From positions 1-64,000 of the IMG/VR virus record IMGVR_UViG_3300045988_188298: a stretch of 64,000 bases of DNA; one strand, given 5' to 3'. Made by a program: the position numbers and the translations under genes. A model generated the notes under the pieces. It saw nothing but the letters and a program-made list of their open reading frames with translations. It searched no databases and was not told where the DNA came from. Shown in pieces: positions 1-64,000 of this stretch. Numbering within the stretch: position 1 is the stretch's first letter; every line of letters starts with the position of its first letter. Source of the stretch: a virus.

Positions 1-55
1 ACTCACTCACTCACTCACTCACTCACTCACTCACTCACTCACTCACTCACTCACT
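1..55. repeat. Tetranucleotide simple-sequence repeat (ACTC)n, 13.75 units, truncated by the window start
   Basis: Perfect actc periodicity from nt 1 to 55, seen directly. Reading frame is open from the repeat into the downstream methyltransferase ORF. Confidence 0.95.
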
Positions 56-72
56 ATCAACCAACGCCGAGG

Positions 73-837
73 TTGCTGCATGGTGACTGCCTAAAGTTAA
101 TGCCTAGAGAGCTGGCTGATAATTCTATAGATTTAGTAGTCTGTGATTTACCCTATGGCACAACCAATGCAAAATGGGATTCAGTCTTAGATTTAGAAGC
201 ACTTTGGGAACAGTATAAACGAGTTGTGAAACCAAATGGAGCTATCTTACTCTTTGCACAAACTCCGTTTGATAAAATCCTTGGCTGTTCAAATATAGAG
301 CAGCTAAGATATGAAATCATCTGGGAGAAAACTCATGCCACTGGCCATCTAAATGCAAAGAAGATGCCATTAAAAGCCCATGAAAACATTTTAGTCTTTT
401 ACGAAAAATTACCAACATACAACCCACAAAAAACACAAGGACACACAAGAAAAGTTTCATCTGCCAAATCAAAAGTCCAATCATTAAAAAGGCACAAAGA
501 GAACATGAAAGACGGCAAAGCCATTTATGGGACATATAATGAAACCAGTTATGATTCGACGGAACGTTATCCACGAAGTGTTCAAGTATTCTCAAAAGAT
601 GTTCAGACATCAAAGCTGCATCCAACACAAAAACCAGTGGCCTTATTAGAGTGGTTAATTAAAACTTACTCTAATCCCGGCGACACTGTTTTGGATAATA
701 CAATGGGTTCTGGCTCTACTGGTGTTGCTTGTATTAATACCGGGCGTAAATTTATTGGAATTGAACTGGATGAGAAATATTTCTATATTGCCAATAATCG
801 GATTTTAGAAACAATGAGTGATAAAAATAAAGATTAA
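73..837 (+). CDS. DNA N6-adenine/N4-cytosine methyltransferase (beta-class, PF01555-like). True start may lie upstream, inside or beyond the SSR
   Basis: Catalytic DPPY-like motif DLPYG near the N-terminus and AdoMet motif DNTMGSGSTG near the C-terminus. The ORF stays open upstream through the (ACTC)n tract. The only in-window start is a TTG at 73. Confidence 0.8.
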   Translation: MLHGDCLKLMPRELADNSIDLVVCDLPYGTTNAKWDSVLDLEALWEQYKRVVKPNGAILLFAQTPFDKILGCSNIEQLRYEIIWEKTHATGHLNAKKMPLKAHENILVFYEKLPTYNPQKTQGHTRKVSSAKSKVQSLKRHKENMKDGKAIYGTYNETSYDSTERYPRSVQVFSKDVQTSKLHPTQKPVALLEWLIKTYSNPGDTVLDNTMGSGSTGVACINTGRKFIGIELDEKYFYIANNRILETMSDKNKD

Positions 838-862
838 TAATTATCTTGTTGATTCCACTTAG

Positions 863-905
863 TTTATAATAGTCGTTGTAAATTATTTTACAACTATTAT
901 TATTT
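863..905 (+). promoter_or_regulatory. Conserved promoter module: TATAAT, then TTGTAAA, then TTTTACAA, then an AT-rich tail
   Basis: TATAAT at 865-870, TTGTAAA at 876-882, TTTTACAA at 886-893. Same architecture repeated upstream of at least 20 genes in the window. Confidence 0.55.
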
Positions 906-928
906 TTTAACATAAAGGAGTTTTTATA

Positions 929-1576
929 ATGAGAGTAAAAAACTTATTCAATGAACAATCATTTTTCTTCAACCCTAAAGGAAATCATCTAATTGTTGGT
1001 GAAAACGGAACAGGAAAAAGTAAATTTCTGGAGGCCTTGCGTCGTCCTGATGATATTGATACATTTGAGATTGATATGAATCTCAATAACAAAGGAGAAA
1101 AAGTTGAATTTATAGAGCCAGTATTTAATTATTCTGATTTGGGATTATCTAAATTGGTTCACCAATTTTATCGTCATAAGCTTTGTGACGGAGATGTGTA
1201 CGATAAGGTCTTAGATGTTCTTAAATCTTTTCCCGGACTTAAAGATGTTTTAGAGCAAGAAATTGACTGGCGTTATGATGAGTATGACGCTAGTTCAGGG
1301 CAGAAAGAAATTATCCGTATAATTGTTTCGTCAGCGCTGCTAATTCTTGATTCGAAATCTGAGGGTTCACATATTCATCTTTTGTTTGACGGACTAGGCT
1401 CTCAACTAAGCTCTTCAAATGCTGAAAAGCTTCCTGAAGCATTGTTAGATGTTATTGAATTTCTGGATTACTTATACCCTGAATTGCCAAAGACCAATAT
1501 CTCAGTAGTGACATACAACGAAAAGATACAGATGTTCTTTTTGACTCAAAAAGGTTTCAATCTTGTAAGAATGTAA
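929..1576 (+). CDS. Small P-loop NTPase (Walker A GENGTGKS)
   Basis: RBS AAGGAG 8 nt upstream. Walker A motif and a downstream hydrophobic-Asp Walker B-like LLFDG. Own promoter module and terminator. Confidence 0.5.
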   Translation: MRVKNLFNEQSFFFNPKGNHLIVGENGTGKSKFLEALRRPDDIDTFEIDMNLNNKGEKVEFIEPVFNYSDLGLSKLVHQFYRHKLCDGDVYDKVLDVLKSFPGLKDVLEQEIDWRYDEYDASSGQKEIIRIIVSSALLILDSKSEGSHIHLLFDGLGSQLSSSNAEKLPEALLDVIEFLDYLYPELPKTNISVVTYNEKIQMFFLTQKGFNLVRM

Positions 1577-1594
1577 AATCTACATATATTTTGT

Positions 1595-1636
1595 TTAAAG
1601 ACTAGATTTTTAAAATTTTCTAGTCTTTTTTTATTA
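1595..1636 (+). terminator. Intrinsic terminator
   Basis: Hairpin aaagactagattttt...aaaatctagtctttttttatt. Confidence 0.6.
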
Positions 1637-1711
1637 TTTTTATAGCAAATGCGATATTTTCTCAAAAAATATGGTATAATAGACAAAACGATTAAATAAT
1701 AAGGAGATGTA

Positions 1712-2419
1712 ATGAATATGAGGTTATTCATAAGTGAATTAATGAGTGGAAACAATCAATATAATCAACTAAATAGATTCTTTTTTCATCTAACACCGTC
1801 TGGAATATTATTTATGATTTTTTCTTTAATCTTAGTTAGTTTTCTTTTTTGGTTTTTTATTTCCATATACAAGAACACTATTGCAAAAACAAGGTTGTTC
1901 CAAAAACATTTTAAAACAGGTCATTCATCCATTCCTAATTCTGGGTTTGATAAGGTTGATTTTTATTTCATAGGATTTGTTGTTTCACTATTACCAGTCC
2001 TATGTATCATGTCTTTTCTGTTTTCTAATGTCTCTATGTTTCAAGCTTATGCAAGAGAATCAGAGGCCGTTGACAGTCTTCAAAGAAAAGATATTTTTGA
2101 AAACTATGATTCTAAAGTAGTGGTTACAGGCAACTATAGATATTCAAACTATACAGAGAATGAAGTTAAAAATGTGTTTTTAGTCTTAGAGAAAAAAGAT
2201 AAGTCATCTTTTTATTCCAACCCATACTATTTACAACCAGTTAATAAGGTTGAGCTTTCAATTGATGGTGTTGGCGATAGAGGATTTAAGCTCGTTGACA
2301 CAAATGTAGATTTTCTTCCCCCAAGAAAATTCTTTATTAAAAAAGAAGATGCCCCAGAAATTTACAAGAAAATATTAAAATATAAAAAAGAAATAGAATC
2401 AAAAACTGAGAGGAATTAA
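1712..2419 (+). CDS. Membrane protein, member 1 of a tandem paralogue triplet
   Basis: N-terminal TM helices. C-terminal region related to the next two ORFs. Confidence 0.5.
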   Translation: MNMRLFISELMSGNNQYNQLNRFFFHLTPSGILFMIFSLILVSFLFWFFISIYKNTIAKTRLFQKHFKTGHSSIPNSGFDKVDFYFIGFVVSLLPVLCIMSFLFSNVSMFQAYARESEAVDSLQRKDIFENYDSKVVVTGNYRYSNYTENEVKNVFLVLEKKDKSSFYSNPYYLQPVNKVELSIDGVGDRGFKLVDTNVDFLPPRKFFIKKEDAPEIYKKILKYKKEIESKTERN

Positions 2420-2422
2420 ACT

Positions 2423-3079
2423 ATGTTACCTATTTTACCTAATTTTACACCAATCAAAATTGACCCAATTATTGATTTATTTACCAAAATAAATAATAAT
2501 GAAACATTACTAAGCCAATCAGATAAAGGAGATTTAGGATTCTTTTATATTGAATTAGTTTTCTTAATATTGACTATCTTTATAACCACTTTGGTTTATT
2601 TTTGCAAAAGAAAAGATGACAAAAAAATAGCAAAACAAAAAGCAAAAGAAGGACTTTGTGTGATGCTACTTCTTGTATACTCTTCTCTTTTCACATATTT
2701 TACAGCAATAAATCCAACAATTAGCAAATATAATGAAATCAATAATTTACAGTTAGAAACAGTCTTCTCCAACTACAATATTGACAGAGTTGAAAGTGTA
2801 AAGAATAATGAAAAAACTGTAATTTATGATGCTTCTGGGAACAAAAAACCAGAAACTCAGTTCAAAATTTACTTAAATAAAACTATAAACAGAAATGATA
2901 TAAGCAAATCTATATATCGTTATCTAAAAAAATCTGTTGTTATCAATGTTACAAAAGTTAATAAAGACGGCTTTGATATTCTTCTCCCTAATGGAAAAGT
3001 TGTAACAATCAAAGAGAAAGATGCTGAACAAATCTTCAACACTCTAAACAAAATTAAAGCAAAAGAAAGTGAGAATTAA
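2423..3079 (+). CDS. Membrane protein, member 2 of the triplet
   Basis: Shares a C-terminal block with the 3083 ORF: YDAxGNxK...FK(I/V)YL(N/D)KT...V(T/S)KVNKD(G/S)FDI(L/I)LP..K..TIK. N-terminal TM helix. Confidence 0.5.
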   Translation: MLPILPNFTPIKIDPIIDLFTKINNNETLLSQSDKGDLGFFYIELVFLILTIFITTLVYFCKRKDDKKIAKQKAKEGLCVMLLLVYSSLFTYFTAINPTISKYNEINNLQLETVFSNYNIDRVESVKNNEKTVIYDASGNKKPETQFKIYLNKTINRNDISKSIYRYLKKSVVINVTKVNKDGFDILLPNGKVVTIKEKDAEQIFNTLNKIKAKESEN

Positions 3080-3082
3080 AAT

Positions 3083-3757
3083 ATGTTTTCAAATATTACA
3101 GAAATTAATCCTATTTTAGAATTGTTTATGTCTAAGAACCCCCCATCATCACTCTTTGTTATTCTGTTTTTTATATATTTAGTATTTTTTGTAGTAATGG
3201 CAGGTTTGTCACTTTTAATTAGTGATTTTACAAGAATAAATAAATACACTCCTTTTGTACGAAAAATAATTTCGTGGCAGAAATGGTTATACATTGTAAC
3301 ATTTATTGCCATATGTCTTGTATTTGTATTTCATTATGAAACCACCAATAAAGCTATTAGAAAAACACCATTAAAATCTGTATTTTCTAGTTATCGTATC
3401 GCTAAAATTAAACAACCAAAAGAATCTGATTCAGCTATAACTTATGATGCTTTTGGAAACCAAAAATCAGAAAGACCAAAAACTCTTTTCAAGGTCTATT
3501 TAGATAAAACAAAAGATGTTAAAAATATAGAGCTGGAACATGATGTTATATTGGAAGTTTCAAAAGTCAATAAAGACAGTTTTGACATTATTCTACCTGA
3601 TGAAAAAGTAGAGACAATTAAAAAGGATGATGCTTTGCAGAAGAGAAGACTGATTAATCTTCTCTTTCTTTTTTTATTTTATAATATTAAATGTAAATCA
3701 TTTTACAATATAAAATTAAAATTTAACAAAAGAAAGGAATCTTGTTTTAAAGGATAA
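3083..3757 (+). CDS. Membrane protein, member 3 of the triplet
   Basis: Same conserved C-terminal block as the 2423 ORF. TM helices at the N-terminus. The stop of one gene is 3-4 nt from the next start. Confidence 0.5.
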   Translation: MFSNITEINPILELFMSKNPPSSLFVILFFIYLVFFVVMAGLSLLISDFTRINKYTPFVRKIISWQKWLYIVTFIAICLVFVFHYETTNKAIRKTPLKSVFSSYRIAKIKQPKESDSAITYDAFGNQKSERPKTLFKVYLDKTKDVKNIELEHDVILEVSKVNKDSFDIILPDEKVETIKKDDALQKRRLINLLFLFLFYNIKCKSFYNIKLKFNKRKESCFKG

Positions 3758-3777
3758 AACAAGATGGTAAAAGAAAA

Positions 3778-4347
3778 ATGAAAAAAGATTATGTTATCCC
3801 AGTCGAATGGACTATTGTGAAGAATGTTAAAGTTTCGGCAGAATCTCTAGATGAAGCAAAAGAACTCGCAGCTTTTGCTTCTGTTGAAACAGGAACATAC
3901 TTGGATGGTTCATACAGAATCAATGAAGAGTTACTTGAAGAATTTGAGGAAAGTCGCAAACAAAAAGAAAACATTGAAAGCAATAAAGAAAAGTTGTTGG
4001 ATAAAACTTTCTCAGACGATTTTCTTTCATCTCTGCCTCTACGTTGGGTATGGGTTGGTAAAGTTGATGCTGTTTTGCCAGATGGTGAAACATGTAAAGC
4101 TGTCAAATTTAGCCGCTCTGAAGGTTGGGGAGTGAAGGCCACAACCACAGAAATGGTTTTCGTACCTCAGGATGAGCCAAATCTTCTAGATGAAGAAAAT
4201 TACTTTGATGTGTACAAAGTTGGTTTCGAGGGTAGTGATTCCCTTTATAAGACCATTGATTTTGTTTCTACATCAAAACTAGAGAGCTACCTCAAAGAAA
4301 ATCTCAACAATATGGCTGAGTTCTTTGATGCCATCTCTAAAAAGTAA
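3778..4347 (+). CDS. Hypothetical acidic protein
   Basis: Long ORF with RBS. Overlapping antisense ORFs are judged spurious. Intrinsic terminator at 4383-4418. Confidence 0.45.
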   Translation: MKKDYVIPVEWTIVKNVKVSAESLDEAKELAAFASVETGTYLDGSYRINEELLEEFEESRKQKENIESNKEKLLDKTFSDDFLSSLPLRWVWVGKVDAVLPDGETCKAVKFSRSEGWGVKATTTEMVFVPQDEPNLLDEENYFDVYKVGFEGSDSLYKTIDFVSTSKLESYLKENLNNMAEFFDAISKK

Positions 4348-7727: not shown

Positions 7728-8828
7728 ATGAAAATGAACAATAATAAATTAACAAAAATTGCCGCTAAAGGCATGACAAAATTTGACCTTGCACCCAAAA
7801 AAGAGGTGGCAATTGAGCAGCTTAAATCCATCCAAAAGGAACTTGCTAATATTGGCAAGGAATACAAATTGAACATCATTTCAAAGCTTGACAACTTTCG
7901 TGGAATTGCGAAAGCTTTACAAGCACTTCGTGTATCAGGAGTTGATGTACTGACCTTAGAAGAAATCAAAAAAATTGGTTTCTATACTAAGTTAGCTCGT
8001 CAAAATCTTTTTGAAGAAGTTCTGCTTCGTGAAAAAGTCTTTGAAAAGGCTCTGAATAGCTGGGTGGAAGCTAAGTCTGTTTTTGATTTAGGCATCAGCT
8101 TTGATGAGAATTCTAAAGAAGCAAAAGTAGACGGCAACCATGACATCTATCTAAAGATGTCTGATAAGAAGCCCGGAAAACTTGTAGACATCATTGCAGA
8201 AATTGACCAAAACATTGATTTCTGTGAGAAACTGATTTGCCAAAGCCGTTTCAAAGAAATTCAAGCTGCTTTTGTAGGAGTTGGATATGATGAATTTGCA
8301 GAGGATTTCAAGAAAGACTTGCGAATCCTTAAAGGTCAATTTGTTATCCTAAAAGAATCTCTCAATGGCTACAATATCAATCTTGAAGAGTATGTAGAAC
8401 ATACTCTAAAAGGAATGGTTGATTTTGCCAACACAGCATTTAACCATTACACAAACATCAATACTCTCAAAAAAATGGAAGAGTATGGTAAATTTGTGGA
8501 CATGGAAGAAAAGCGCATCAAAGACGAAGAGAAAGCAGCAATTGATTTCTTCTGGGGAACATTCAGTAAGAAATTTGTCTGGAATGTTATTCCAAAAGAT
8601 TTTGCTTTTGCAGTTTTCCGTAAAACAATCGGCGGTCTGACACAGACTCGCTTCCATGAATTAAGTCAAGAATGGATGAATGATAATCCAAGCTGGACTT
8701 ACAAATTCGGCAATCTAAAAATTGTTGTTGGGTCTAAAATGGATGAGGTTGAACCTCTCGAAAAAGAACTCAACATCAAAGTGAAACGTCAAAAAACCGT
8801 TCGTGGTTATTTGCGTCTTGCCAAATAA
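7728..8828 (+). CDS. Hypothetical protein (366 aa)
   Basis: Long ORF with a strong RBS. Terminator hairpin at 8851-8881. Confidence 0.5.
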   Translation: MKMNNNKLTKIAAKGMTKFDLAPKKEVAIEQLKSIQKELANIGKEYKLNIISKLDNFRGIAKALQALRVSGVDVLTLEEIKKIGFYTKLARQNLFEEVLLREKVFEKALNSWVEAKSVFDLGISFDENSKEAKVDGNHDIYLKMSDKKPGKLVDIIAEIDQNIDFCEKLICQSRFKEIQAAFVGVGYDEFAEDFKKDLRILKGQFVILKESLNGYNINLEEYVEHTLKGMVDFANTAFNHYTNINTLKKMEEYGKFVDMEEKRIKDEEKAAIDFFWGTFSKKFVWNVIPKDFAFAVFRKTIGGLTQTRFHELSQEWMNDNPSWTYKFGNLKIVVGSKMDEVEPLEKELNIKVKRQKTVRGYLRLAK

Positions 8829-13252: not shown

Positions 13253-14407
13253 ATGACAAAAACAAAACATAAATCCTATAAGTTTCGTCTCTATCCAAAT
13301 CAGAAACAAATGCTAATGTTTGAAAAGACCTTTGGCTGTTCGCGTTTTATTTGGAATCAGATGCTGGCTGATAAAATAGCTTATTATAAGGAAACAGGAC
13401 AAACTTTGAAGAATACACCTGCCCAATATAAGAAAGAATTCCCTTGGCTGAAAGAGGTAGATAGCCTAGCTCTGGCAAATGTCCAATTGAATCTTCAAAA
13501 GGCTTATCAATCATTCTTTAAAAATAAAAACCATTTTGGTTTTCCTAATTTTAAATCGAAAAATAAAATGACTCATCAATCTTATCGAACCAACAACAAA
13601 CAAGGAGTAGGAACAATTAGATTAAGTGATAACAATAATCAAATCAAACTCCCAAAGATTGGTTGGATAAAAGTAAAGGCTCATAGGAAACTAAAAGGTG
13701 TAATAAAAAGCGCTACGATTTCAAAGACCTCAACCGGTAAATATTTTGTTTCGATTTTGTGTGAAATTAAGATTGAGGTTGAAGAGAATATTAAAACTTT
13801 CCCAAAAACGAATTCCAACATTGGGATTGATTTAGGGTTAGAGCATTTTGCTATTCTCTCCACTGGAGAAAAGATTGAAAATCCTAGATTCTTAATCTCG
13901 GCCTCTAAAAAATTAAGGAGAGAACAGAAAATATTATCTCGTAGAGGGCTGTTGGCAAAGCAGAGGGGCAAAAGTTTAAATGACTGCATGAATTATCAGA
14001 AGCAGCGCCTAAAGGTTGCTAGACTTCATGAAAAGATTTCTAACCAAAGAAGAGATTTTCTTTCCAAGTTGAGTATCAATCTTATCAAGAACCACGATAA
14101 GATTTGTATGGAAGATTTAGCGAGTAAAAATCTCATGAGAAATCACCATATTGCCAGAGCGATTGGGGATGCTTCTTGGTCTGAATTCTGTAGAATGTTA
14201 GAGTATAAGGCTGAATGGTATGGGAAACAGATTATTAAAATTAATAGATGGTTTCCATCATCTCAACTATGTTCAAACTGTAAAACGAACTCAGGGAAGA
14301 AGCCACTTCATATTAGAGAGTGGACATGCGATAGTTGTGGCACTCGTCATGATAGAGACCTCAATGCCAGTGTGAATATTCTACATGAAGGCTTGCGTTT
14401 GGCATAA
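13253..14407 (+). CDS. tnpB: TnpB (IS200/IS605-family OrfB, RuvC-like RNA-guided nuclease type). No tnpA partner, so IS1341-like
   Basis: N-terminal YKFRLYPNxxQ motif. C-terminal zinc finger CSNCx...CDSCG. RuvC-III DRDLNASVNI. Upstream gene is not a Y1 transposase. Confidence 0.9.
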   Translation: MTKTKHKSYKFRLYPNQKQMLMFEKTFGCSRFIWNQMLADKIAYYKETGQTLKNTPAQYKKEFPWLKEVDSLALANVQLNLQKAYQSFFKNKNHFGFPNFKSKNKMTHQSYRTNNKQGVGTIRLSDNNNQIKLPKIGWIKVKAHRKLKGVIKSATISKTSTGKYFVSILCEIKIEVEENIKTFPKTNSNIGIDLGLEHFAILSTGEKIENPRFLISASKKLRREQKILSRRGLLAKQRGKSLNDCMNYQKQRLKVARLHEKISNQRRDFLSKLSINLIKNHDKICMEDLASKNLMRNHHIARAIGDASWSEFCRMLEYKAEWYGKQIIKINRWFPSSQLCSNCKTNSGKKPLHIREWTCDSCGTRHDRDLNASVNILHEGLRLA

Positions 14408-14604: not shown

Positions 14605-15936
14605 ATGAAAAATATGGTCAAACTATCAATGGTTACATTTGCTGCTATTAGTGGACTTCTTTATTCTAGCAATGTTTTAGCTAGTGAAGTCACTAAGGAA
14701 GGTACTGAGGTTTCTGTCAAACAACCAGAAATTGATGTTACTCGTCAAGATGATACATTTTACACAAAGATTGATGTAAAAGTGTCAACAGCAATTCCAG
14801 ATGATATTACCATCAATCAAGGAGACACAATGACCATGCCCTTGCCAAAAGAGCTTGAATTGGAAACAACTTATGATTTCCCAGTAAATGCTCCTGACGG
14901 TGAACCGGTAGGTCAAGCTACAGCGAACGCTACGACAAATACTGTCACTACAGTGTTCAATGATTATTTTCAAAAGAAGCCTTTGAATAAATCAATTTCA
15001 TGGACTATGCGTACACAAATTAACCGTGAAGTTGTAAAAGACGAAGGCACAATGCACCTTGATTTTAAGGGCACTGTTGTTGATGTTAAGACTGGCTCAA
15101 AAGGCGACACCAATCTCAATGAAGAATTGTATAAATGGGGGCGGCAGGATAAGGATGATGCTTCTGTAGTCCACTGGGTTGCTCGCGTAAATTATCGCAA
15201 GGCTAGTCTTAAAGGTGTCCATGTTCATGATACTTGGGATGAATCACAAGAGTATGTTCCGGGGTCAATGATTGTAAATTACCTACATTCAGCAAACCCT
15301 TGGACTCTTGCATATACTGCTGACCCAAGCTTCGTGAAAATCCGTAAAGACGGTTTTGATGCGGAAGTTGGTGATTTGGATAAAGTTGTAACTTTTGAAT
15401 ACAGCACGCGCTCCAAAGACCGCTCTATCATTCCTACTAACACCTTTACGGTACAAGCGCAAGATTACTTCTTGCAGCACGAAGTGAATTACAAATGGGC
15501 GGATGGCTCAGGTGAAGCTGATGGCAAAAATAAGCCAAAAGATAAGGTAAAACCAAAAGAATTTGAACCTAAAAAGGAAGAAAAGAAAAAGACTGAAAAT
15601 GTCAAGGTGACACCTAAACCTGAAGAAAAGCCGAAGCCTAAAGAAGATACACCAAAACCACCAGCACCAGAGGTTGAAAAACCAAAGGCTGAACCAAAAG
15701 AAGAGCCTAAGAAACCAGAACCAAAACCTAAAGAAACTCCTAAGCCAAAGGAAGAAAAACCAACACCAAAACCAGAAGTGAAAGAAGTTCCTAAGCCAAC
15801 TGAGCCTAAGAAAGTTCTTCCTAAAACTGGTTCAGATGACCGTGTTGTAAAAATTCTTGCAGGTCTGGGATTTGGAATTCTGATTGGCGTAATTGCTCTT
15901 ATGACTGGTGGTACTAAATCTACAAAGAAAGGTTAA
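14605..15936 (+). CDS. LPxTG cell-wall-anchored surface protein with a Pro/Lys/Glu-rich (PKPE) spacer
   Basis: Signal peptide. C-terminal LPKTG, hydrophobic segment and basic tail. PEPK repeats. Confidence 0.85.
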   Translation: MKNMVKLSMVTFAAISGLLYSSNVLASEVTKEGTEVSVKQPEIDVTRQDDTFYTKIDVKVSTAIPDDITINQGDTMTMPLPKELELETTYDFPVNAPDGEPVGQATANATTNTVTTVFNDYFQKKPLNKSISWTMRTQINREVVKDEGTMHLDFKGTVVDVKTGSKGDTNLNEELYKWGRQDKDDASVVHWVARVNYRKASLKGVHVHDTWDESQEYVPGSMIVNYLHSANPWTLAYTADPSFVKIRKDGFDAEVGDLDKVVTFEYSTRSKDRSIIPTNTFTVQAQDYFLQHEVNYKWADGSGEADGKNKPKDKVKPKEFEPKKEEKKKTENVKVTPKPEEKPKPKEDTPKPPAPEVEKPKAEPKEEPKKPEPKPKETPKPKEEKPTPKPEVKEVPKPTEPKKVLPKTGSDDRVVKILAGLGFGILIGVIALMTGGTKSTKKG

Positions 15937-23262: not shown

Positions 23263-23366
23263 TTCGTTATATATCCAACACAATTTGTATTTGTCTGTTG
23301 CGATTTCTTTTATCATTTGTTATACTGAACTTAACTAAAAGAAAGGAAAAAATAAGGAGAAAGACC

Positions 23367-24671
23367 ATGAGACAAGTCGAACGTCACTGGATTAAAGAAG
23401 GGCATGCCTTATATCCTATCTGTGACGATTTAACCTTTAAAGCTAAGAATCTTTACAATGCAGGGCTGTATCAAATTCGTCAATCCATTTTTGAGCGAAA
23501 CAAATGTGATAATAAAGAAGAAAAACCTTCTGTACTGTCTTGGATTGAATTAGTTTCTCAATTCCGAAAAGAGAAACAAAGTGATATGTTGGCGTTGCCC
23601 TCCAAGGTTTCTACCAACATTTTAAAGAACCTTGGTTCTTCTATTAGCTCTTACTATCAACTCTTAAAGTGTTTTCATGATAAGTCTAACACAAGTGTAT
23701 CTAGCAAACCTCAGTTGCCTCGCTATCTTCACAAGACAAAAGGGCGTTATATAGCAGAGTTCACACATCAGACCTTTTCTAAAAAGAGGGGGTTGAATGG
23801 AGAACTTATTTTATGTCCTAAAGATTTTAGTTTGGTTATCCCAACTAAGGTTAAGAATCCTAAATGTGTTCGTATTGTTCCTAAATTAAAAGCTTTTGTC
23901 ATTGAGGTTGTTTATGAAGTAGAACCAGCTCTTTTAAAACATACTGGAAATTATGCAGCGATTGATTTAGGAATTGATAACCTAGCTAGTGTTACCTTTT
24001 CAAACAACGTGAACCCACTAGTGGTAAAGGGTTCTAAATTAAAGAGCATTAATCAAGGTTACAATCGTTTAATTGCTAAAGCAAAATCTAAACTTCCAAT
24101 GAGTCAAAAGACCAGTCAGCACATCCACCGTCTTTGGAAAAATCGTGAATTGAGGTTTCAATCAGAACTTCATAAAATCACTTCTTTTCTTTCACTTTAT
24201 TTTGACGAGATGGCGATTGAAACAGTCTTTGTAGGAAAAAATTTAGGTTGGAAGCAAGGGGTTTCTTTAAGAAAGAAAAATAAACAAACTTTCACACAAA
24301 TTCCTTTTAATGCTTTCATTTCTCAGTTGACTTATAAATGTTTAATAAGAGGAATAAAAGTATTAGAACAGGAAGAGTCTTACACCTCTAAAGCTAGTTT
24401 CTTAGACGAGGACGAGATTCCTATCTATGAAAAGAACAATCAAAATCAAAATTTTATCTTTTCAGGAAAACGAATTAGCAGAGGGTTATATAAATCTAAA
24501 GATGGTAGCCTCTTGAACGCAGACGTTAATGGGTCTTACAATATCTTAGTGAAAGGACTTTTAACCTTAAACAAATCTCTTAATAGGAAAAACCTTTCTT
24601 TTCATACAAGGAGTTTAAAGAATGATTTAACGTCAGTGTCCAATGTTGACTTGCTTTTACAATACATGTAA
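23367..24671 (+). CDS. tnpB: TnpB, IS607-type. Orphan, no tnpA
   Basis: Shares PRYLHKTKGR and the RuvC-III NADVNGSYNIL motif with the IS607 tnpB at 54775. Start placed at the ATG after RBS AAGGAGAAAGACC. Confidence 0.8.
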   Translation: MRQVERHWIKEGHALYPICDDLTFKAKNLYNAGLYQIRQSIFERNKCDNKEEKPSVLSWIELVSQFRKEKQSDMLALPSKVSTNILKNLGSSISSYYQLLKCFHDKSNTSVSSKPQLPRYLHKTKGRYIAEFTHQTFSKKRGLNGELILCPKDFSLVIPTKVKNPKCVRIVPKLKAFVIEVVYEVEPALLKHTGNYAAIDLGIDNLASVTFSNNVNPLVVKGSKLKSINQGYNRLIAKAKSKLPMSQKTSQHIHRLWKNRELRFQSELHKITSFLSLYFDEMAIETVFVGKNLGWKQGVSLRKKNKQTFTQIPFNAFISQLTYKCLIRGIKVLEQEESYTSKASFLDEDEIPIYEKNNQNQNFIFSGKRISRGLYKSKDGSLLNADVNGSYNILVKGLLTLNKSLNRKNLSFHTRSLKNDLTSVSNVDLLLQYM

Positions 24672-30570: not shown

Positions 30571-30578
30571 CTTGCATA

Positions 30579-30652
30579 TAGTCTCTACAGGACTCGAACC
30601 TGTAACCTGTCGCTTAGAAGACGATTGCTCTTTCCAGTTGAGCTAAGAGACC
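30579..30652 (-). tRNA. tRNA-Arg (anticodon UCU)
   Basis: Reverse complement folds as a cloverleaf: D-arm GCTC/GAGC, anticodon loop CTTCTAA, T-arm ACAGG-TTCGAGT-CCTGT, acceptor with a G1-U72 wobble. Similar to known tRNA-Arg(UCU) sequences. Confidence 0.8.
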
Positions 30653-30665
30653 AAAAATAAAACAA

Positions 30666-31055
30666 TGGAGCCGGTGGGAGTCGAACCCACGTCCAAACAA
30701 TCATTCCAATCAACCTTATTACGCACTGTTACATTTTTTTATTTTCTGAACAACAGTAAATGCACAAACCTACTATTCATATCTCTTATTTAACCTTAAA
30801 ATCCGAGAATTCTTTCAAGGCGATTACCGTAATTTGAAGTAGTTGTTTTACCGGCACATAAAACAGGTACTCGTCTAACTATTCTAAGTAGACTATATGA
30901 TAAATTCAATTGATATGTAAAGCTTCATCTAAGCAAATGCTTAGGCAGCCATATCAGTAGCAAAATTGTTTGCAGTTATGTTTAAGTTGATAGATAACGT
31001 CATCACTCGGTGCGAGGTTGAGAAGTCCAATCGCCTGTCGAAGCCGGGCGACCCC
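30666..31055 (-). ncRNA. ssrA: tmRNA (ssrA), about 390 nt. Predicted tag peptide ANNFATDMAA
   Basis: 5-prime GGGGTCGCCCGGCTTCGACAGG on the reverse complement. 3-prime tRNA-like GGGTTCGACTCCCACCGGCTCCA. Acceptor pairing with a G-U at position 3. Canonical TTGACA-17-TATTAT promoter at 31080-31110. Confidence 0.85.
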
Positions 31056-40349: not shown

Positions 40350-41322
40350 ATGAATCGTTACAAAACAATTGATTTATTTGCTGGAATTGGTGGTCTTCGT
40401 TTGGGCTTTGACCAAACCAATCGGACGGAGACTGTATTTTCTAGCGAGATAGATAAATTTGCAAGACAAACATATCAAGCAAATTTTGGAACTGAACCGG
40501 GGGGGGGATATTACTAAGATAGAAGCATCTGATATTCCTGACCACGATATTCTCTTGGCAGGTTTTCCTTGTCAAGCTTTCTCACATGCCGGACTAAAGA
40601 AAGGTTTTGAAGATATTCGAGGAACTTTATTCTTTGATGTCGCTAGGATTTTGAAAGAAAAGAGGCCCAAAGCGTTTTTGTTAGAAAATGTAAAAGGCCT
40701 TATAGCGCATGACAATGGCAATACATTCAAAGTTATTTTAGAGACATTGAATGAGTTGGGTTATGATGTTCATTATAAAATCCTCAACACAAAAGATTTC
40801 AACATCCCTCAGAATAGGGAACGTATCTATATTGTTGGATTTTTAAAAGAAGTAGTTCTAAATTCTTCTATCTTTGATTTCCCTATTGAAGAACTAAAGA
40901 AACCGGGATATTTACAAGTTTTTAAAAAAGCTGTTCTGGGAGATGTTTTAGAAAAACATGCTTCAGATAACTACACTATATCTGACAAAGCATGGAAAGG
41001 TCTCAAAAACAGAAAGAAGCGGAATCAGGAATCTGGTAAAGGTTTTGGTTATTCCTTGGTCAATCCTAAATCTGAATACACAAGAACTTTGGTTGCTCAT
41101 TATTGCAAGGATGGGAATGAAATTCTTTTAGAACAAGATGGGAAGAATCCTAGAAAACTAACTGAACGAGAATGTGCTAGACTACAAGGGTTTCCAGAAG
41201 ATTTTGTTTTTCCTTGCAGCAAAACACAGACCTACAAACAATTAGGTAATTCTGTTACAGTTCCAGTTATTTATAAAATTGCTCGCAAGATTATTATGAA
41301 ACTAGATAAAGACACAAAATAA
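40350..41322 (+). pseudogene. DNA cytosine-5 methyltransferase interrupted by a +1 frameshift at a G9 homopolymer (40499-40507)
   Basis: Motif I DLFAGIGG in frame 0. Then GDITKI, PCQAFS and ENV motifs in frame +1 (ORF 40459-41322). Eight Gs would restore a single ORF reading EPGGDITKI. Confidence 0.85.
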
Positions 41323-41358: not shown

Positions 41359-42690
41359 TTATTTCTTGCGGCGTTTGAACAATGTTCCACTACCTAGTCC
41401 AAGGGCAGCCAAGCCTCCTGCAAACTGCATACCGATAGCTTCAGCACCAGTCTTAGGAAGTGTTTTGTTTCCTACTGTTGGTTTTGGAGTTTCCTTTTTA
41501 CCAACTTCTTGCTTTTGAGGAGTTTCTGATGGGGTTGCTGGTGTTTTTGATTTATCACCATCATCTTCTTTCTTCTCAGGAGCTTTTTCTGGAGTTTCTG
41601 TTACTTTTGGAGTTTCTTCTTTTTTCTCCAGATTTGGCTTTTCTGTAGTTGGTGTTTCTACTGGTTTCTCTACTGGCTTTTTAGGAAGCTCATTTGGTTC
41701 TGGCTTATCAGTCAGATGTTCGTTAGGGGTAGGAAAAACTGATTCTCGGATAGTTTCAACCGGTTTTTCAGCAGGCTTTTCAACTTCCTTAGCTTTCACA
41801 TTGTCCTTTTGAGACTTGACAGTTGTAGCATCTTTATCTAGCTTTTCTAGTAGAGTTCCACCAACCTTACGAAGAACAACAACTTCAACCTTACCTTTTT
41901 GAACGATAGATTTAGAAATTGTGATATTTCCAGTTGCTTCATCAAATTTGAATCCATCTTTAACAAATTCAGCTTCTTTTCTGAAATGGTCAAAAATGTA
42001 ATCAAGCTTACCAGTTTTTGGGTTGCGGAAAAGTTTAACATTGGTTACATTGCTAGTCTTGTCAGCAGTGGCAGGCTTATTGTTGAAGAATAAAACTGTC
42101 AAAGCTTTTACATTGTCATCTGTTTTGACATAAAAGTTTTGTTCGTCTGATGTCAAATAAAGATTTTTTTGTTCTGCATCAGTCTTTTTAGCTTCATCCT
42201 TTTGAGGCGCTGCTGATGGAGCTTTCAATGGAGCTGTAGAAATGCTTGTTTGTACCTTTTTAGGGGCAGCAGGTGCAGGAGTAGAAGTCTGAGCATTTGT
42301 ATCTGTTGCAGGCTTTGCAGATGGTGCTTTTAGTGGAGCTGTAGAAACAGATGTTTGCACAGTTGCTTGTGGTTTATCACCAAAGATTTCTTTTCGAACA
42401 GCAGCCGTATCTTCGGATTCTTTTGTTGGTTGGGCCTTAACATCCTTGCCTACAATGTCCATATAGTTGTCAGTGCTTTTAGCTTCTACTTTATCTGTAG
42501 TTGTGGTTACTTTATCTGGCGTTGCTGTTTTATCTGTGGTAGGGTTTGCAGCATCTGATGTGGTTGTAGTGGCTGAATTTTCCTGTTTTACAATAGGAGT
42601 ATTTTCAGCAGCAAAAACATTTTGCGCAGAACCTAGCCCAACAATACCAGCAAGTGCTAGAGAACTAGCCAATCGAAATTTCTTATTCAT
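41359..42690 (-). CDS. LPxTG cell-wall-anchored surface protein
   Basis: Signal peptide. C-terminal LPKTG, hydrophobic segment and KRRKK tail. Terminator at 41330-41358. Confidence 0.8.
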   Translation of the reverse strand: MNKKFRLASSLALAGIVGLGSAQNVFAAENTPIVKQENSATTTTSDAANPTTDKTATPDKVTTTTDKVEAKSTDNYMDIVGKDVKAQPTKESEDTAAVRKEIFGDKPQATVQTSVSTAPLKAPSAKPATDTNAQTSTPAPAAPKKVQTSISTAPLKAPSAAPQKDEAKKTDAEQKNLYLTSDEQNFYVKTDDNVKALTVLFFNNKPATADKTSNVTNVKLFRNPKTGKLDYIFDHFRKEAEFVKDGFKFDEATGNITISKSIVQKGKVEVVVLRKVGGTLLEKLDKDATTVKSQKDNVKAKEVEKPAEKPVETIRESVFPTPNEHLTDKPEPNELPKKPVEKPVETPTTEKPNLEKKEETPKVTETPEKAPEKKEDDGDKSKTPATPSETPQKQEVGKKETPKPTVGNKTLPKTGAEAIGMQFAGGLAALGLGSGTLFKRRKK

Positions 42691-46596: not shown

Positions 46597-47548
46597 TTAT
46601 TGTAGGCTGTCTTTAATAGCTTCAGCTAGTCTTTTTATAACTGGCACAGAAACACTGTTGCCTGCCTGTTTATATAATCTGGAATTGCTTTGATTAGGGA
46701 ATTTATAGTCTTCTGGAAAGCCTTGGGCATTGAAACATTCTCGTGGGGTTAGTTTCCTAATCCGTCCATCTTCAGTTAAAATCAAAGGAACATTGCTGCC
46801 ACCCGTGCCCATGTTGGCTGTCAAAGTTGGAATTAATCCGTTTTTATTTTCTCTGACGTACTTTCGTCTCCATTGATAAATCCTGTCATTTCTTGTTATT
46901 CCTTCCTCTAACTTATCATAAAATTTATTTTTCTTCTTAGAATAATAATACTTTTCATCAACAGGGTTCTTGAAATCAATAACATCATCTAGTTTTGTAG
47001 TTAGTGGAATTTCATCAGGCATTGTAAAGTTATTGAAGTCTTCAATGTCTCTAAAGGCTACAATATAGATTCGTTCTCGTCCTTGTGGAATATTACCATA
47101 TTTGGCTGAATTCATCACTTTATAAGATATATAATAACCAAGGTCTTCTAGTGTTCTAGTAATCACGGAGAAAGTTCTTCCTTCATCATGTGACACTAGG
47201 TTTTTTACATTTTCAAAAAACGCAACTCTAGGCTTTCTTTCAGATATAACTCTAGCAACATCAAAGAATAAAGTTCCTCTAGCGTCACTAAATCCTAATT
47301 GTTTGCCTGCTAGGGAAAATGCTTGGCAAGGGAAACCAGCAAGCAAGACATCAAGGTCCGGCAATTCTGATGCTTCTATAGTTGTAATATCTCTCACATC
47401 TACTTTTATGCCAAAATTTTCTTCAAACGTTTGAGCTGGATATACATCAATTTCATTGGCATAGACAGTTGTAAAACCTGCTTGTGCGAAGCCTAAGTCC
47501 ACCCCCCACTCCTGAAAATAGAGAGGCCATTTTCAATTCTTTTTTCAT
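46597..47548 (-). pseudogene. DNA cytosine-5 methyltransferase with a frameshift at a G6 tract (C6 on the plus strand, 47502-47507) separating motif I from the rest
   Basis: An upstream ATG at 47548 gives MKKELKMASLFSGVGG (motif I), then the frame is lost. The main ORF from GTG at 47502 carries PCQAFS and ENV motifs. A -1 or +2 change in the tract restores one ORF. Confidence 0.8.
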
Positions 47549-47897: not shown

Positions 47898-50800
47898 CTA
47901 ATCTTCTTGTTTTTTAGATTTTATTGTTAATCCTAAAGCAACCAATCCAAGAATAGCTCCAAGAACTTGAAGTGTTCCTGTTTCTGTTTGACCAGTTTTT
48001 GGAAGTTCTTTCTTAGGAACTTCAGTCTTAATCACTGATGGTGCAGGAGCAGGAGTTTCGTCTTTCTTAGGTTCTTCTGGGATTTTTAGTTCTTCCAATT
48101 CAACAACAGGAGCGTCTTTTGGAACTTCGGTAACAACTAATTCAGTCAGTTCGTGAACCGGCGCTTCGTTAGGCACTTCGGTCAAGACTTTCTCTGGAAT
48201 TTCATGAATAGGCGCATCAGATGGAATCTCTGTAAGGATTTTCTCTGGCAGCTCATGAATTGGAGCGTCGCCCGGAATTTCAGTCAATACCTTTTCCGGC
48301 AGTTCGTGAATTGGAGATTCAGATGGAACTTCTGTTAGAACTTTTTCTGGCAACTCATGAATAGGAGCATCACCCGGTACTTGTTTTTCAACGCGGACGT
48401 AATAGTGAGTAGAGATATGGTCTTCTACTGTCGTCAGCTTAGAATAGACATATTCCTCACGTTCTCCGATAAACAATGGAGCAAGCACAACTCCTTTGAC
48501 AGTAGGAGCAATTTCTCGCTCTACGCCGTTTTCAACCGTTACGAAACGAGTAACATTAAGTGCACCAAAATCACTAATAGGGGCATTTTCAGGAACTTCT
48601 GAAACGGAGCGGTCATAGTAATGAGTTGTAACTCCATCTTCTTTGACAGTTTTACCGTTATATTGGAAGCTGCCTACATACATAGGAGCTTCATGAGTGC
48701 CCTCTTCAGCAGGTTTCACTTCAATTTCACCATTATCAGTAACAGCAATATAACGAGTAGCTTCACGAACTTCTGGTGTCACACTTGGTGCATCAATAGG
48801 CTTTTCACCTTTTACATAATGATAGTAGTGAGTGGTAATACCAGTCACACCGTCATTGGCATCAGTGTGGTCAAAGAAGTATTGGTGGAAGTCATCACCC
48901 AACCACATAGGGGCAGGAAATGTACCTTTTTGTTCATCACGAATTTCACTAAAGCTGCCATCTTCTTCAATTACCAAGAAACGTGTAATTTCTTGCATTT
49001 CAGGATTCACAGTTGGAGCATCAATTGGCTTATCTTTTTTCACTGCATCATAGTAATGAGTATGAATACCATCTTCAACCTTTGTTTGACCAGAATAATG
49101 ATATTTCTCATTTTGAAGAAATGCAGGAGCTTCATGAATACCTTCAAGAGATGGAGCGATTTCTTCTTCCACACCATTTTCCCCAACGGTTACAAATCGA
49201 GTAACATCAGAGACTTCTCCGGTCATTTTTGGAGCTTCATTAGGAACAGTGGTTTGGATTTTCACATAGTAATGAGTAGTAATTCCAGTTATTCCATCAT
49301 TAGGTGTAGTGTGGTCAAATTGATAGCTTCCAATAATGCTAGGCGCTGGCAGTGTTCCCTCTTGGGTTTCTGCAACCTCTACTTCTTCACCTTGCTCATT
49401 TACAAGAACAAAACGAGTAACTTCACGCATAACTGGTGTTACAGATGGTGCATCTGTAGGTAATTCGTGTGTTTCTGGTGTTGCCGTTGTTTCATAAATG
49501 AAATGTTGGCGAGAAATAGTAAGGCCTGTTGCAGGATTTTCTCCGACCCATGACTTAGGAAGAGTTACACCGTTTTGAACTTCTTTATCTGTAAATCCAA
49601 CAACGCCTGTCCACTTCTTGTTGCCCTTGTATTCAAGCAGCATACGGAAGCCGGCTAATTTATTATTTTCTACAGTTGGCAAAGTTTGCTCAGGAGTGTA
49701 GACACCCGGAGTGTAAGGATTATGTTCTGCATTTTCATCACCATCCCATTCAAAATGGTCAGTCATTTCGTGAGGAGTAATTTTTTCTCCGTTACGCATG
49801 AAGTAAATCTCACCGCTTTCATGGAAGTTCTTGTATACTTCTGTTTCTTCTTCTTTAGTCAACAAGAAATCATAGTAAAGAGATTTTGGTGTTACTCTTG
49901 GTTGTTGTGGCCCTCCAAATCCAAATGGATTTTCTAGACCTGAGACTGGTAATTCTGATGGCCCTAAACCAAACTCATTAACACCGTGGTCAGCAGGTTT
50001 CACATGCAGCAATGTATAATTTCTTACAATTGGCGCGTGCACTTCTTCACCATTAGTATTAGCAAAAGTCAATACCTGACTGAATTCAGATTTTGTCAAT
50101 GTGCTTTCTGGCAAATTAGCCATCCAGCGTGTTACACGAACAGTTGGGTTTGGTGTTTTAGAGTAATAATCACTTGCGTGTTCGCTGCCTTTAACTTCTT
50201 TCGGAAGATAAATTTCTGTTGAAAGTCGGAAACGTTGAGACACACCATACCCAAAATCACCATCCACTTTCAATGTAATTCCTTTACCTCGGCTGATAAA
50301 AGCTCCTGAACCGTAATAATAATTAGGTTTGTCTGGAGAATTCCAGCCTAATTTATATTCACTAGAATTGACTTTGTAGCGTCCTTTAGTCCAGTAATTA
50401 TTTAGGTTATAGAAGTTTTCGGTTTCCGGATTAATTGTTCCGCTGAAATTTTTTACTCCTGAACCCGGAATCTGAACTGCTTTATCGGCTGGGTTGAGAG
50501 TAATACTCTCCCAGTGTCCGCCCGGAGACAGAATTGGCTCTGGTGTATATCTCAATTCCGCTGATTCAAAGAAAATGTTTTTCCCATTGAGGATTGTAAA
50601 TCTACCAATTGTTTCACCTCTGGAATTTAGCTCGTTAAAGCCGTCATAGGTGCTGGTGATTTCATCACCCTCTGGCACACCTGTTTCATCATAATGAGAA
50701 ACATTTCGGAACACTCGAACACGTTGGTTTGGTGAGTACAGCTTAGTTGATTTTACATATGTTTCTCCAGTTTGTACTTCTGGACTTAAAACCTCATTAA

Positions 50801-54083: not shown

Positions 54084-54788
54084 ATGAAAGAAAGGAGGCG
54101 TTTTATTTTGTATAAAAAGTCAATGATTTTAAATAAATCAACTTATAAGACAGGAGAAGTCGCTGCTCTTCTAGGAGTATCAATTCAAACTGTTATCAAT
54201 TATTGTGAGATGGGGCACATCCCCTTTTATAAAACAGAACATGGGCATCGTCGTATTCTTGCGGAGGACGTTTACAATTACCTAGTTTCTCTAAATATGG
54301 CGTATGATGAAAATTCTAATTCTAATGATACAAATTCTACTTATACTAAATCAGACGTAATCTATGCTCGTGTATCTACACATAAGCAAGCAGAACGAGG
54401 TGATTTAGAGCAGCAAGTGGAAAAAGTAATGTTGTATGCAATTCATCAAAACGTAAACAACCTCATTGTTAAAACAGATATTGCTTCAGGGTTGGATGAT
54501 AATCGTAAAAATCTACTCTCTTTAATTGATATGGTACAAAAAGGGGAGGTTTCTCGAATTTTTGTTTTAGATAAAGACCGTTTAACTAGCTTTGGTTATC
54601 CTTACTTGAAGAAAATTTGCGACTTCCATGGAGTCTCTATCATTGTTGTTTTAGATGAGATTGACATTAAAACTCAATCAGAAGAACTGGCAGAGGATAT
54701 TATCACTCTCATTCATTCTTTTTCAGAGAAATTATATGACCTAAGACAAAAAATTAAGAAAGAAATAAAATGTAATGAAGAAAGTTAA
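54084..54788 (+). CDS. tnpA: IS607-family TnpA serine recombinase (MerR-like HTH plus resolvase catalytic domain)
   Basis: HTH region YKTGEVAALLGVSIQTVINYC. Catalytic VIYARVSTHKQ. The true start is probably the internal TTG or ATG after RBS AAGGAGG. Confidence 0.9.
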   Translation: MKERRRFILYKKSMILNKSTYKTGEVAALLGVSIQTVINYCEMGHIPFYKTEHGHRRILAEDVYNYLVSLNMAYDENSNSNDTNSTYTKSDVIYARVSTHKQAERGDLEQQVEKVMLYAIHQNVNNLIVKTDIASGLDDNRKNLLSLIDMVQKGEVSRIFVLDKDRLTSFGYPYLKKICDFHGVSIIVVLDEIDIKTQSEELAEDIITLIHSFSEKLYDLRQKIKKEIKCNEES

Positions 54789-56016: not shown

Positions 56017-56120
56017 ATTAAAACAAATTAAATAAAAGTAAAACATGATTAGATTAGTCTATCTAGGATTGTTTAGAGGGTAGTCGCAGTCGCCCCAACT
56101 CTGACTTAGAATAAAATAGT
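56017..56120 (+). ncRNA. Candidate omega-RNA / right-end region of the IS607 tnpB
   Basis: ORF-free. gattagattagtctatctagg...agagggtagtcgcagtcgcc is similar to the region after the orphan IS607-type tnpB at 24672. Confidence 0.35.
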
Positions 56121-56286
56121 TTTTTGTTTTGTAAGTAGGGTGAGAAACAACAAATATATTGTTGGAAACTTTGATTTTTCTTAATAAATTAGAGAACTGT
56201 AAGTTTTTTGAACATTACTTATATATCCATCCTATAAAAATAGTATTTGCAAAATGACAAGTGATTTTACAAATACTATCATAACA

Positions 56287-63958: not shown

Positions 63959-64000
63959 AACTTTTTACTCTCCCGGTTTTTCTCGTTTTACAAGAATTTC

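Follow-up and report, generated by a model that had tools for sequence, protein, structure and literature searches.

A frame-shifting ACTC repeat in the first codons of a solitary DNA methyltransferase gene is a likely contingency switch on a ~233-kb oral mobile element

The DNA analyzed here (the window) comprises positions 1 to 64,000 of the IMG/VR virus record IMGVR_UViG_3300045988_188298, a 64,000-nucleotide (nt) stretch of 33% GC that belongs to an uncultivated element of about 233 kb from the human mouth. Its first gene (positions 1 to 837, plus strand; 5′ truncated in the window, stop codon TAA at 835 to 837) is predicted from its translation and from Pfam and PADLOC matches to encode a beta-class N6/N4 DNA methyltransferase. 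The first 55 nt of the gene form a simple sequence repeat, (ACTC)13.75 (1 to 55, plus strand), which encodes (THSL)n in the methyltransferase frame. An original prediction, made from the letters alone, had described a perfect ACTC repeat of at least 13.75 units cut by the window edge, and both the sequence and Tandem Repeats Finder (period 4, 13.8 copies, 100% matches, consensus ACTC) agree with it. The tract starts at position 1, so that 13.75 units is a lower bound. It is the sole period-4 array in the 64 kb, and the only other microsatellite with at least four copies is one GAA x4. By our own estimate, a 64-kb sequence of this composition would contain a run of 51 period-4 matches by chance ~1e-24 times.

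Frame 1 reads (THSL)4-TH-YQPTPRLLHGDC... (after the repeat also given as (THSL)4-TH-YQPTPRLLHGDCLKLM...) and is stop-free until the TAA at 835 to 837. The openness of the methyltransferase frame through the repeat, on which the prediction had drawn, is real but is a weak argument: the tract is open in all three forward frames, and openness there therefore says little by itself. The informative part is what follows the tract. Translation of the other two frames (out of frame, or OFF) reaches a TGA at 84 to 86 and a TAA at 92 to 94 (both plus strand), and both stops precede the catalytic DLPY motif at 145 to 156. The open reading frame (ORF) list and the sequence place the first in-frame start 3′ of the repeat at a TTG (73 to 75, plus strand). 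This codon had been taken for the only start and for one directly after the repeat; it is indeed the first, but it lies 18 nt downstream and is followed by an in-frame ATG at 100.

Recovery of the sequence upstream of the window, proposed with the prediction as a check, was possible with relatives from other human oral metagenomes that were obtained by exact-protein look-up of the downstream gene (929 to 1576). Two contigs, L001 (from a contig of 232,729 nt) and L002, were 100% identical to the window across 1,500 nt 3′ of the tract and identical to each other across 400 nt upstream. Both read ccAAGGAGattttttATG TCT GAT AAT and then enter the repeat immediately. Because both carry a canonical ribosome-binding site and an ATG before the repeat (AAGGAG-N7-ATG), the real start is this ATG, 12 nt 5′ of the tract and just outside the window. 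Counted from it, tract lengths of 31, 43, 55, and 67 nt (7.75, 10.75, 13.75, and 16.75 units) are in frame.

The repeat could instead lie in a leader, with the enzyme translated from TTG 73 (MLHGDC...) at any tract length and with the ATG and repeat forming a short upstream ORF that would at most tune expression by translational coupling. The OFF stops at 84 to 86 and 92 to 94 lie just 3′ of the TTG, which would favor termination followed by re-initiation, and a homologue from another lineage, P0003, is annotated from the equivalent position with the short N terminus MWHGDC, so that a product begun near TTG 73 could be active. However, TTG 73 is probably not a normal start, since a GAGG abuts it directly without a spacer, in contrast to the upstream ATG with AAGGAG at 7 nt. 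The P0003 lineage itself has an upstream ATG, an (AGAAG)n repeat, and a long in-frame allele (P0156), and its short call is therefore an OFF-allele artifact. Further, most repeat-free homologues start 6 to 10 residues ahead of the conserved GDC motif. On this balance we consider translation from TTG 73 irrespective of tract length improbable, and TTG 73 is better regarded as a codon at which OFF alleles might leak through re-initiation.

Contigs of the window lineage were collected by protein look-up plus flank scans of the JGI metagenome and IMG/VR collections, with a sampling bias, as several look-ups were queried with out-of-frame-type proteins. Tract counts, taken from the consensus of short-read assemblies of different samples, included in-frame tracts of 7.75 units encoding 274 amino acids (aa) in L001, L007, and L008. 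Out-of-frame tracts had 8.75 units (L009; a 25-aa peptide ending at TGA 84 to 86), 9.75 units (L006; 29 aa), or 12.75 units (L002; 33 aa), the last two ending at TAA 92 to 94. Contigs that start within the tract, and to which no state is assignable, showed at least 13.75 units (the window and L004) or at least 14.75 units (L003). In-frame and out-of-frame tracts were both found on identical backgrounds, and the coding sequence 3′ of the tract was stop-free and 96 to 100% identical in all window-lineage contigs. The prediction had suggested counting units across relatives and had named a stop, or a start after the repeat, together with a fixed unit number, as evidence against a switch; the relatives instead have an upstream ATG and counts that vary. 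A start 5′ of the repeat, in- and out-of-frame alleles, and an intact gene are what is expected if the repeat acts, as proposed, as an ON/OFF switch of the methyltransferase.

Six of the contigs, assembled from different samples with different assemblers, run across the whole tract and into unique sequence at both of its ends. This bears on whether the 55-nt tract at the window edge is an assembler extension of k-mer length, which we regard as very improbable. At exactly 55 nt, the tract matches a k-mer size in common use; the independent 3.5-kb contig L004 opens with the same 55 nt and L003 with 59 nt; and unit counts at such contig ends are untrustworthy. The spanning contigs nevertheless establish that the repeat is real, leaving only the unit number of the window uncertain. 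Contig ends or N gaps fall exactly on these tracts in the window, L003, L004, L077, L087, and L105, and the tract explains assembly breaks at this locus in an abundant oral element. Such breaks and gaps are an indirect hint of frequent length change within a population.

A sister lineage has ~87.5% nt identity in the coding sequence, the N terminus MSNSNNT, and (TCAC)n, which is the same repeat in another register. (TCAC)4 is in frame (L086 and L093 to L095), and (TCAC)5 (five contigs), (TCAC)6 (two contigs), and (TCAC)8 (L083) are out of frame; in scaffold L087 the tract is interrupted by an N gap. L083, L085, and L086 share 99.9 to 100% identity in their coding sequences. The protein cluster of the gene (243 members) holds long in-frame forms, many calls from an internal Met (243 to 246 aa), and repeat-free forms such as MSDNTHYQPTPR (P0133). 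Since repeat-free alleles exist, the tract is not a required part of the protein; it has expanded from an ACTCACT seed in a portion of the N terminus that is dispensable. In one protein cluster, "members" of 152 aa were unrelated proteins and were ignored.

Two other lineages carry different repeats at the same site. A homologue with 71% identity (P0002) has an (RAEQS)n protein repeat and lies on phage-like contigs of 68 to 81 kb (L073 to L082) that also encode YopX, HicAB, and a cytosine-5 methylase. Its DNA repeat is (AGAGC)n, with n = 5, 5, 5, 6, 6, 6, 9, 9, 11, and 17 across samples, plus one N gap; IMG/VR scans for the (AGAGC)n flank gave no match. A contig of a Streptococcus sanguinis isolate (L011) has a P0002-type gene with (AGAGC)3. 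The P0003-cluster homologue (~70% identity; contigs of 64 to 79 kb, one copy binned with a Gemella metagenome-assembled genome) has (AGAAG)n, with n = 5, 11, 14, and at least 22 (the last with an N gap) in L010 and L105 to L107. P0156 is the one long in-frame allele of this cluster, and most of its other members are called from an internal Met. Every one of these repeats has in-frame protein alleles (P0001, P0002, P0141, and P0156).

Such repeats are confined to few relatives. Among the best 120 database relatives, only two cluster representatives have periodic N termini, and of the 120 representatives none outside the three oral lineages has an N-terminal repeat. At 62 genome loci checked, a multi-base repeat near the 5′ end was seen only in L010 and L011, with A8 to A10 runs in a few others, and the remaining relatives on oral contigs of 200 to 355 kb are without any repeat. 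Three element lineages therefore have three different repeat units within the same few codons 5′ of GDC, and with units of 4 or 5 nt throughout, every one is frame-shifting. Of all the observations, this convergence, as read from the sequences, argues most strongly that switching has been selected for and did not arise by accident.

A neutral hypermutable tract in a decaying gene, with out-of-frame alleles as incipient pseudogenes, would be a competing account of the length variation. The many internal-Met calls in the cluster hint at frequent out-of-frame alleles, and frameshifts are also seen in two genes of the window for cytosine-5 methyltransferases, in one of them at a G9 run that is the same in five contigs. 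We nevertheless find decay unlikely. Each out-of-frame allele examined keeps the full stop-free downstream coding sequence at the identity given above, tracts of both kinds share identical backgrounds, and three frame-shifting units at one site in three lineages are hard to explain without selection for switching.

These comparisons make it likely that (ACTC)n works as a slipped-strand contingency switch, placed in the opening codons of a gene for a solitary beta-class methyltransferase on a ~233-kb uncultivated element of oral Gram-positive bacteria. Translation would start at the ATG 12 nt 5′ of the tract, and an in-frame tract would give an enzyme of ~274 aa with a tolerated (THSL)n N-terminal extension. 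With one unit gained or lost, ribosomes would meet TGA 84 to 86 or TAA 92 to 94 before the DLPY motif; up to this point the anatomy of the frame switch is shown by comparison of the sequences. Within a population, slipped-strand mispairing would lengthen and shorten the tract frequently and reversibly, and the element would exist as a mix of methylating and non-methylating copies. OFF alleles are expected to make no active enzyme, although re-initiation at TTG 73 or ATG 100 could allow some.

Several points weigh against a working switch. The tract counts are short-read consensus alleles, and differences between samples could in principle be fixed strain differences. The tract of the window is cut by the edge, and its ON/OFF state is not readable there. 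The 7.75-unit allele occurs in three of the six spanning contigs, and a tract so short may switch slowly. OFF may leak, with TTG 73 and ATG 100 no more than 20 nt from the OFF-frame stops and a homologue called from MWHGDC. Methyltransferase activity and the modified base (N6-methyladenine [m6A] or N4-methylcytosine [m4C]) are predictions at the level of sequence, and the biological role proposed below is based on context only.

The Pfam N6_N4_Mtase profile (PF01555) matched the enzyme at 124.3 bits against a cut-off of 26.7 (E value of 9e-36; profile positions 1 to 220 of 221), and the best PADLOC model was Type II methyltransferase (MTase_II PDLC03251; E value of 8e-86). Motif IV, D-L-P-Y (DPPY type), occupies residues 49 to 52 of the window translation (145 to 156, plus strand), with D49, P51, and Y52 invariant in a 32-sequence alignment. 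The S-adenosylmethionine (AdoMet)-binding motif I, LDNTMGSGSTG, follows at residues 231 to 241 (691 to 723, plus strand), also in invariant columns, and motif IV before motif I is the beta-class order. PDB matches over the motif I region were to DpnA, CcrM, MboIIA, and RsrI. The closest NCBIfam and PDB relatives (YhdJ-like proteins and the same four enzymes) are adenine specific, though all are distant, and N4-cytosine enzymes score lower; we would expect the modified base to be m6A. A structure predicted from the 32-sequence alignment had a mean pLDDT (predicted local distance difference test) score of 48, too poor for a fold search, and was not used. Plasmids of Burkholderia, Enterococcus, Listeria, and E. 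coli carry homologues with 55 to 62% identity, as do phages from many phyla, including those of Escherichia, Klebsiella, Pseudomonas, Enterococcus, and Cellulophaga.

In the 10 kb to the left and to the right of the gene, no called gene matched an endonuclease or helicase profile (Pfam, NCBIfam, and PADLOC), although a nuclease that such profiles do not recognize is possible. As judged from its sequence, the gene is a solitary Type II-like methyltransferase of 274 aa and not a Type III mod gene, because it is small and has no res gene nearby. The likeness to the phase-variable mod genes of Haemophilus and Neisseria that had been drawn at the outset thus holds for the frame-switch mechanism and fails for the family.

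The element shows strong avoidance of restriction sites. GATC occurs 0 times in the 64,000 nt against 188 expected under a maximal-order Markov model, and six 6-bp palindromes (ATGCAT, CAGCTG, CTGCAG, CTTAAG, GATATC, and GTTAAC) are absent from the window. GATC is also absent from the other loci of the element and from the (AGAAG) element (L001, L102, L008, L083 to L095, L105 to L107, and L010). Self-protection of GATC by a Dam- or DpnII-type activity of the ACTC gene was considered and rejected, since the element has no GATC and the enzyme resembles DpnA in the AdoMet-binding region only.

At least four methyltransferase genes lie in ~75 kb, and two are split at poly-G runs. A cytosine-5 methyltransferase gene (40350 to 41322, plus strand) is divided by a G9 run at 40499 to 40507, between motif I and the PCQ motif, into ORFs of 55 and 287 aa. 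The protein is ScrFIA-like (62 to 64% identity to such enzymes), and G8 or G11 would restore an intact protein of 323 to 324 aa. G9 was found in the window and four related contigs, and G8 with an intact gene was found in 10 contigs of the sister lineage; an IMG/VR scan for the poly-G flank gave no match. By its sequence this gene is a second candidate repeat switch. A second cytosine-5 methyltransferase gene (46597 to 47548, minus strand) is split at a G6 run (47502 to 47507) inside motif I (FSGVGG), reading MKKELKMASLFSGVGG up to the frameshift and VDLGFAQAGF... after it, and could be a pseudogene or a third switch. A further gene encodes a D12-class (Dam-family, PF02086) methyltransferase of 196 to 204 aa (L102 518 to 1108, ~8 kb past window position 64000); no repeat was found at its start, and its element is without GATC sites.

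As it passes from one host to the next, the element would most likely use the switch to hedge its methylation state against their restriction systems. Methylation would shield the DNA from methylation-sensitive enzymes and expose it to methylation-dependent ones. This role is favored because the enzyme family is typical of mobile elements, site avoidance is extreme, and the element has several methyltransferases, some apparently switchable. In the main alternative, methylation would regulate genes of the element or of its host epigenetically (a phasevarion). A broader proposal joins the (ACTC)n-switched N6/N4 enzyme with the two poly-G cytosine-5 switches in a combinatorial three-switch methylome that would serve as a counter-defense bet-hedge and that would have evolved independently in at least three oral element lineages with three units. 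Any one copy of the element would then display one methylation pattern out of several; we put this forward tentatively, with the balance of probability somewhat against it.

Type III mod switches in Haemophilus, Neisseria, and Moraxella have a tetra- or pentanucleotide repeat in the 5′ coding region, and changes in unit number toggle the frame. Repeat switching of Type III mod genes is treated in PMC1976455 and PMC1557822, and the mechanism is restated in PMC8125046. The ACTC gene shares with them the 5′ in-frame repeat, the PF01555 domain, and the N6-adenine-type class of methyltransferase. Their Mod proteins, however, are large and chromosomally encoded, have a variable recognition domain at the center, and are paired with a neighboring res gene; the ACTC protein has 274 aa, is solitary, and comes from a mobile element. 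The solitary methyltransferases with an anti-restriction role that phages and conjugative plasmids carry belong to the same protein family as the ACTC gene.

The Gram-positive setting, which the original prediction had called unusual, has precedents, and the unusual part is the giant mobile carrier. In Streptococcus suis, ModS has a GAGCA(n) repeat near the gene start in a chromosomal Type III system, and both switching and motifs were shown experimentally (PMC8125046). As with the ACTC gene, the methyltransferase gene of this low-GC Gram-positive organism has a frame-shifting repeat close to its start, and GAGCA is the (AGAGC)n of the P0002-type homologue in another register. ModS differs from the ACTC gene in enzyme class, carrier, and repeat unit, and the ACTC gene, unlike ModS, is known as a sequence. 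An orphan CpG cytosine-5 methyltransferase of Mycoplasma agalactiae is switched by a poly(G) tract of 6 to 11 G upstream of the catalytic domain, with mostly truncated alleles (PMC9465063), and closely parallels the G8/G9 tract of the gene at 40350 to 41322. The M. agalactiae gene is chromosomal in a mollicute, whereas the ACTC gene has a tetranucleotide repeat and another methyltransferase fold class.

Repeat-switched methyltransferases are known as chromosomal regulators of host-adapted pathogens; here they occur on mobile elements, with at least three origins and different units. No description of repeat-switched methyltransferases of phages or giant mobile elements, or of stochastic switching in the solitary methyltransferases of phages and conjugative plasmids, was found in the literature searched, whose coverage is incomplete and leaves their absence unproven. 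The mechanism itself is already known, and what appears to be new is a switch on solitary methyltransferases of mobile elements in commensal oral bacteria. If the proposal is true, stochastic methylation states would be used by phages and mobile elements as well as by their hosts, with consequences for restriction barriers and host range. The locus also offers a testable system for long-read metagenomics, as tract length and methylation can be read on one DNA molecule.

Upstream of the start, in the 300 nt that precede the first window base in the intact element (L001 8791 to 9084), L001 has a perfect sigma-70 promoter, TTGACA-17-TATAAT with a TG extension (8791 to 8819). It is followed by a leader of ~215 nt that is highly conserved between the window and sister lineages. 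A 12-bp hairpin with a T-rich tail (L001 9007 to 9037) ends 48 nt before the methyltransferase ATG, and its G-U wobble shifts position between lineages. An Rfam search of the leader region (L001 8300 to 9300) gave nothing above chance, and the fold z-score of the leader was only -2.0, a weak folding signal. From its sequence, the leader with its hairpin may be an attenuator or a small RNA and thus a possible extra layer of transcriptional control.

The upstream neighbor of the methyltransferase gene encodes a 69-aa helix-turn-helix (HTH) protein. Downstream lie a gene for a 215-aa P-loop protein and then three tandem paralogous genes for membrane proteins of ~220 to 235 aa (1712 to 3757, plus strand). 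The number and lengths of these paralogues differ between related contigs, and the three at 1712 to 3757 gave no family match. A defense system formed by the methyltransferase and the P-loop protein was considered and is not supported, as the matches of the latter to PtuA, GajA, and AriA were only weak and at the level of the Walker A motif (E values of ~1e-5 to 1e-2).

Three independent assemblies of the carrier element have near-equal lengths of 232,729 nt (k119_90689), 232,780 nt (Ga0557493_012976), and 233,832 nt (IMGVR_UViG_3300007500_000151), which gives an element size of ~233 kb and suggests a complete genome. Sister-lineage contigs are 223 to 248 kb, and several contigs of the element are cataloged as viral in IMG/VR. 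Its content was read over ~84 kb of the ~233 kb, and 75 window ORFs were scanned against Pfam. No capsid, portal, or terminase gene was seen in the ~84 kb, and the Inocle marker InoC (replication-relaxation domain PF13814), VirB4, and VirD4 were not found among the 75 scanned ORFs or the flanking called genes within the same ~84 kb. A near-identity DNA search of window positions 1 to 4000 against phage and plasmid collections gave no match, and the element is thus absent from records of cultured phages and plasmids. The element is possibly a jumbo phage or a giant plasmid-like element. Like the Inocles, giant extrachromosomal elements of oral Streptococcus (PMC12340149), it is oral, has ~32% GC, spans hundreds of kb, and carries insertion sequence (IS) elements, LPXTG proteins, and mostly genes of unknown function. 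Unlike them, it fits no 32%-GC group clearly at ~233 kb, is listed as viral by IMG/VR, and carries a transfer-messenger RNA (tmRNA) gene. The host is a low-GC Gram-positive bacterium of the mouth, and Gemella and Streptococcus are candidates, though on weak grounds.

The window further encodes an SPFH/flotillin protein, an ATP-dependent DNA ligase, a dUTPase, YopX, NADAR, and a GIY-YIG nuclease. Its LPXTG-anchored surface proteins, with GbpC and collagen-binding domains, suggest from their sequences that the element alters the host surface. A 1,399-aa LPXTG protein (47898 to 52097, minus strand) has a GbpC domain and 51-nt tandem repeats (48187 to 48372), a 443-aa LPXTG protein is encoded at 41359 to 42690 (minus strand), and a protein with Big_8 and collagen-binding domains is encoded at 14605 to 15936 (plus strand).

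The element carries its own tmRNA (tag ANNFATDMAA; Rfam score of 114 bits) beside a tRNA-Arg(TCT) (30578 to 31055, minus strand), an unusual cargo for a mobile element. tmRNA has been reported in some very large phages. IS605-family TnpB genes lie at 13253 to 14407, 23298 to 24671, and 54775 to 56016 (plus strand). The third is preceded by a resolvase/HTH gene (54084 to 54788) and followed on its 3′ side by an IS605-orfB-II RNA (56044 to 56200, plus strand; Rfam RF02998, 134 bits).

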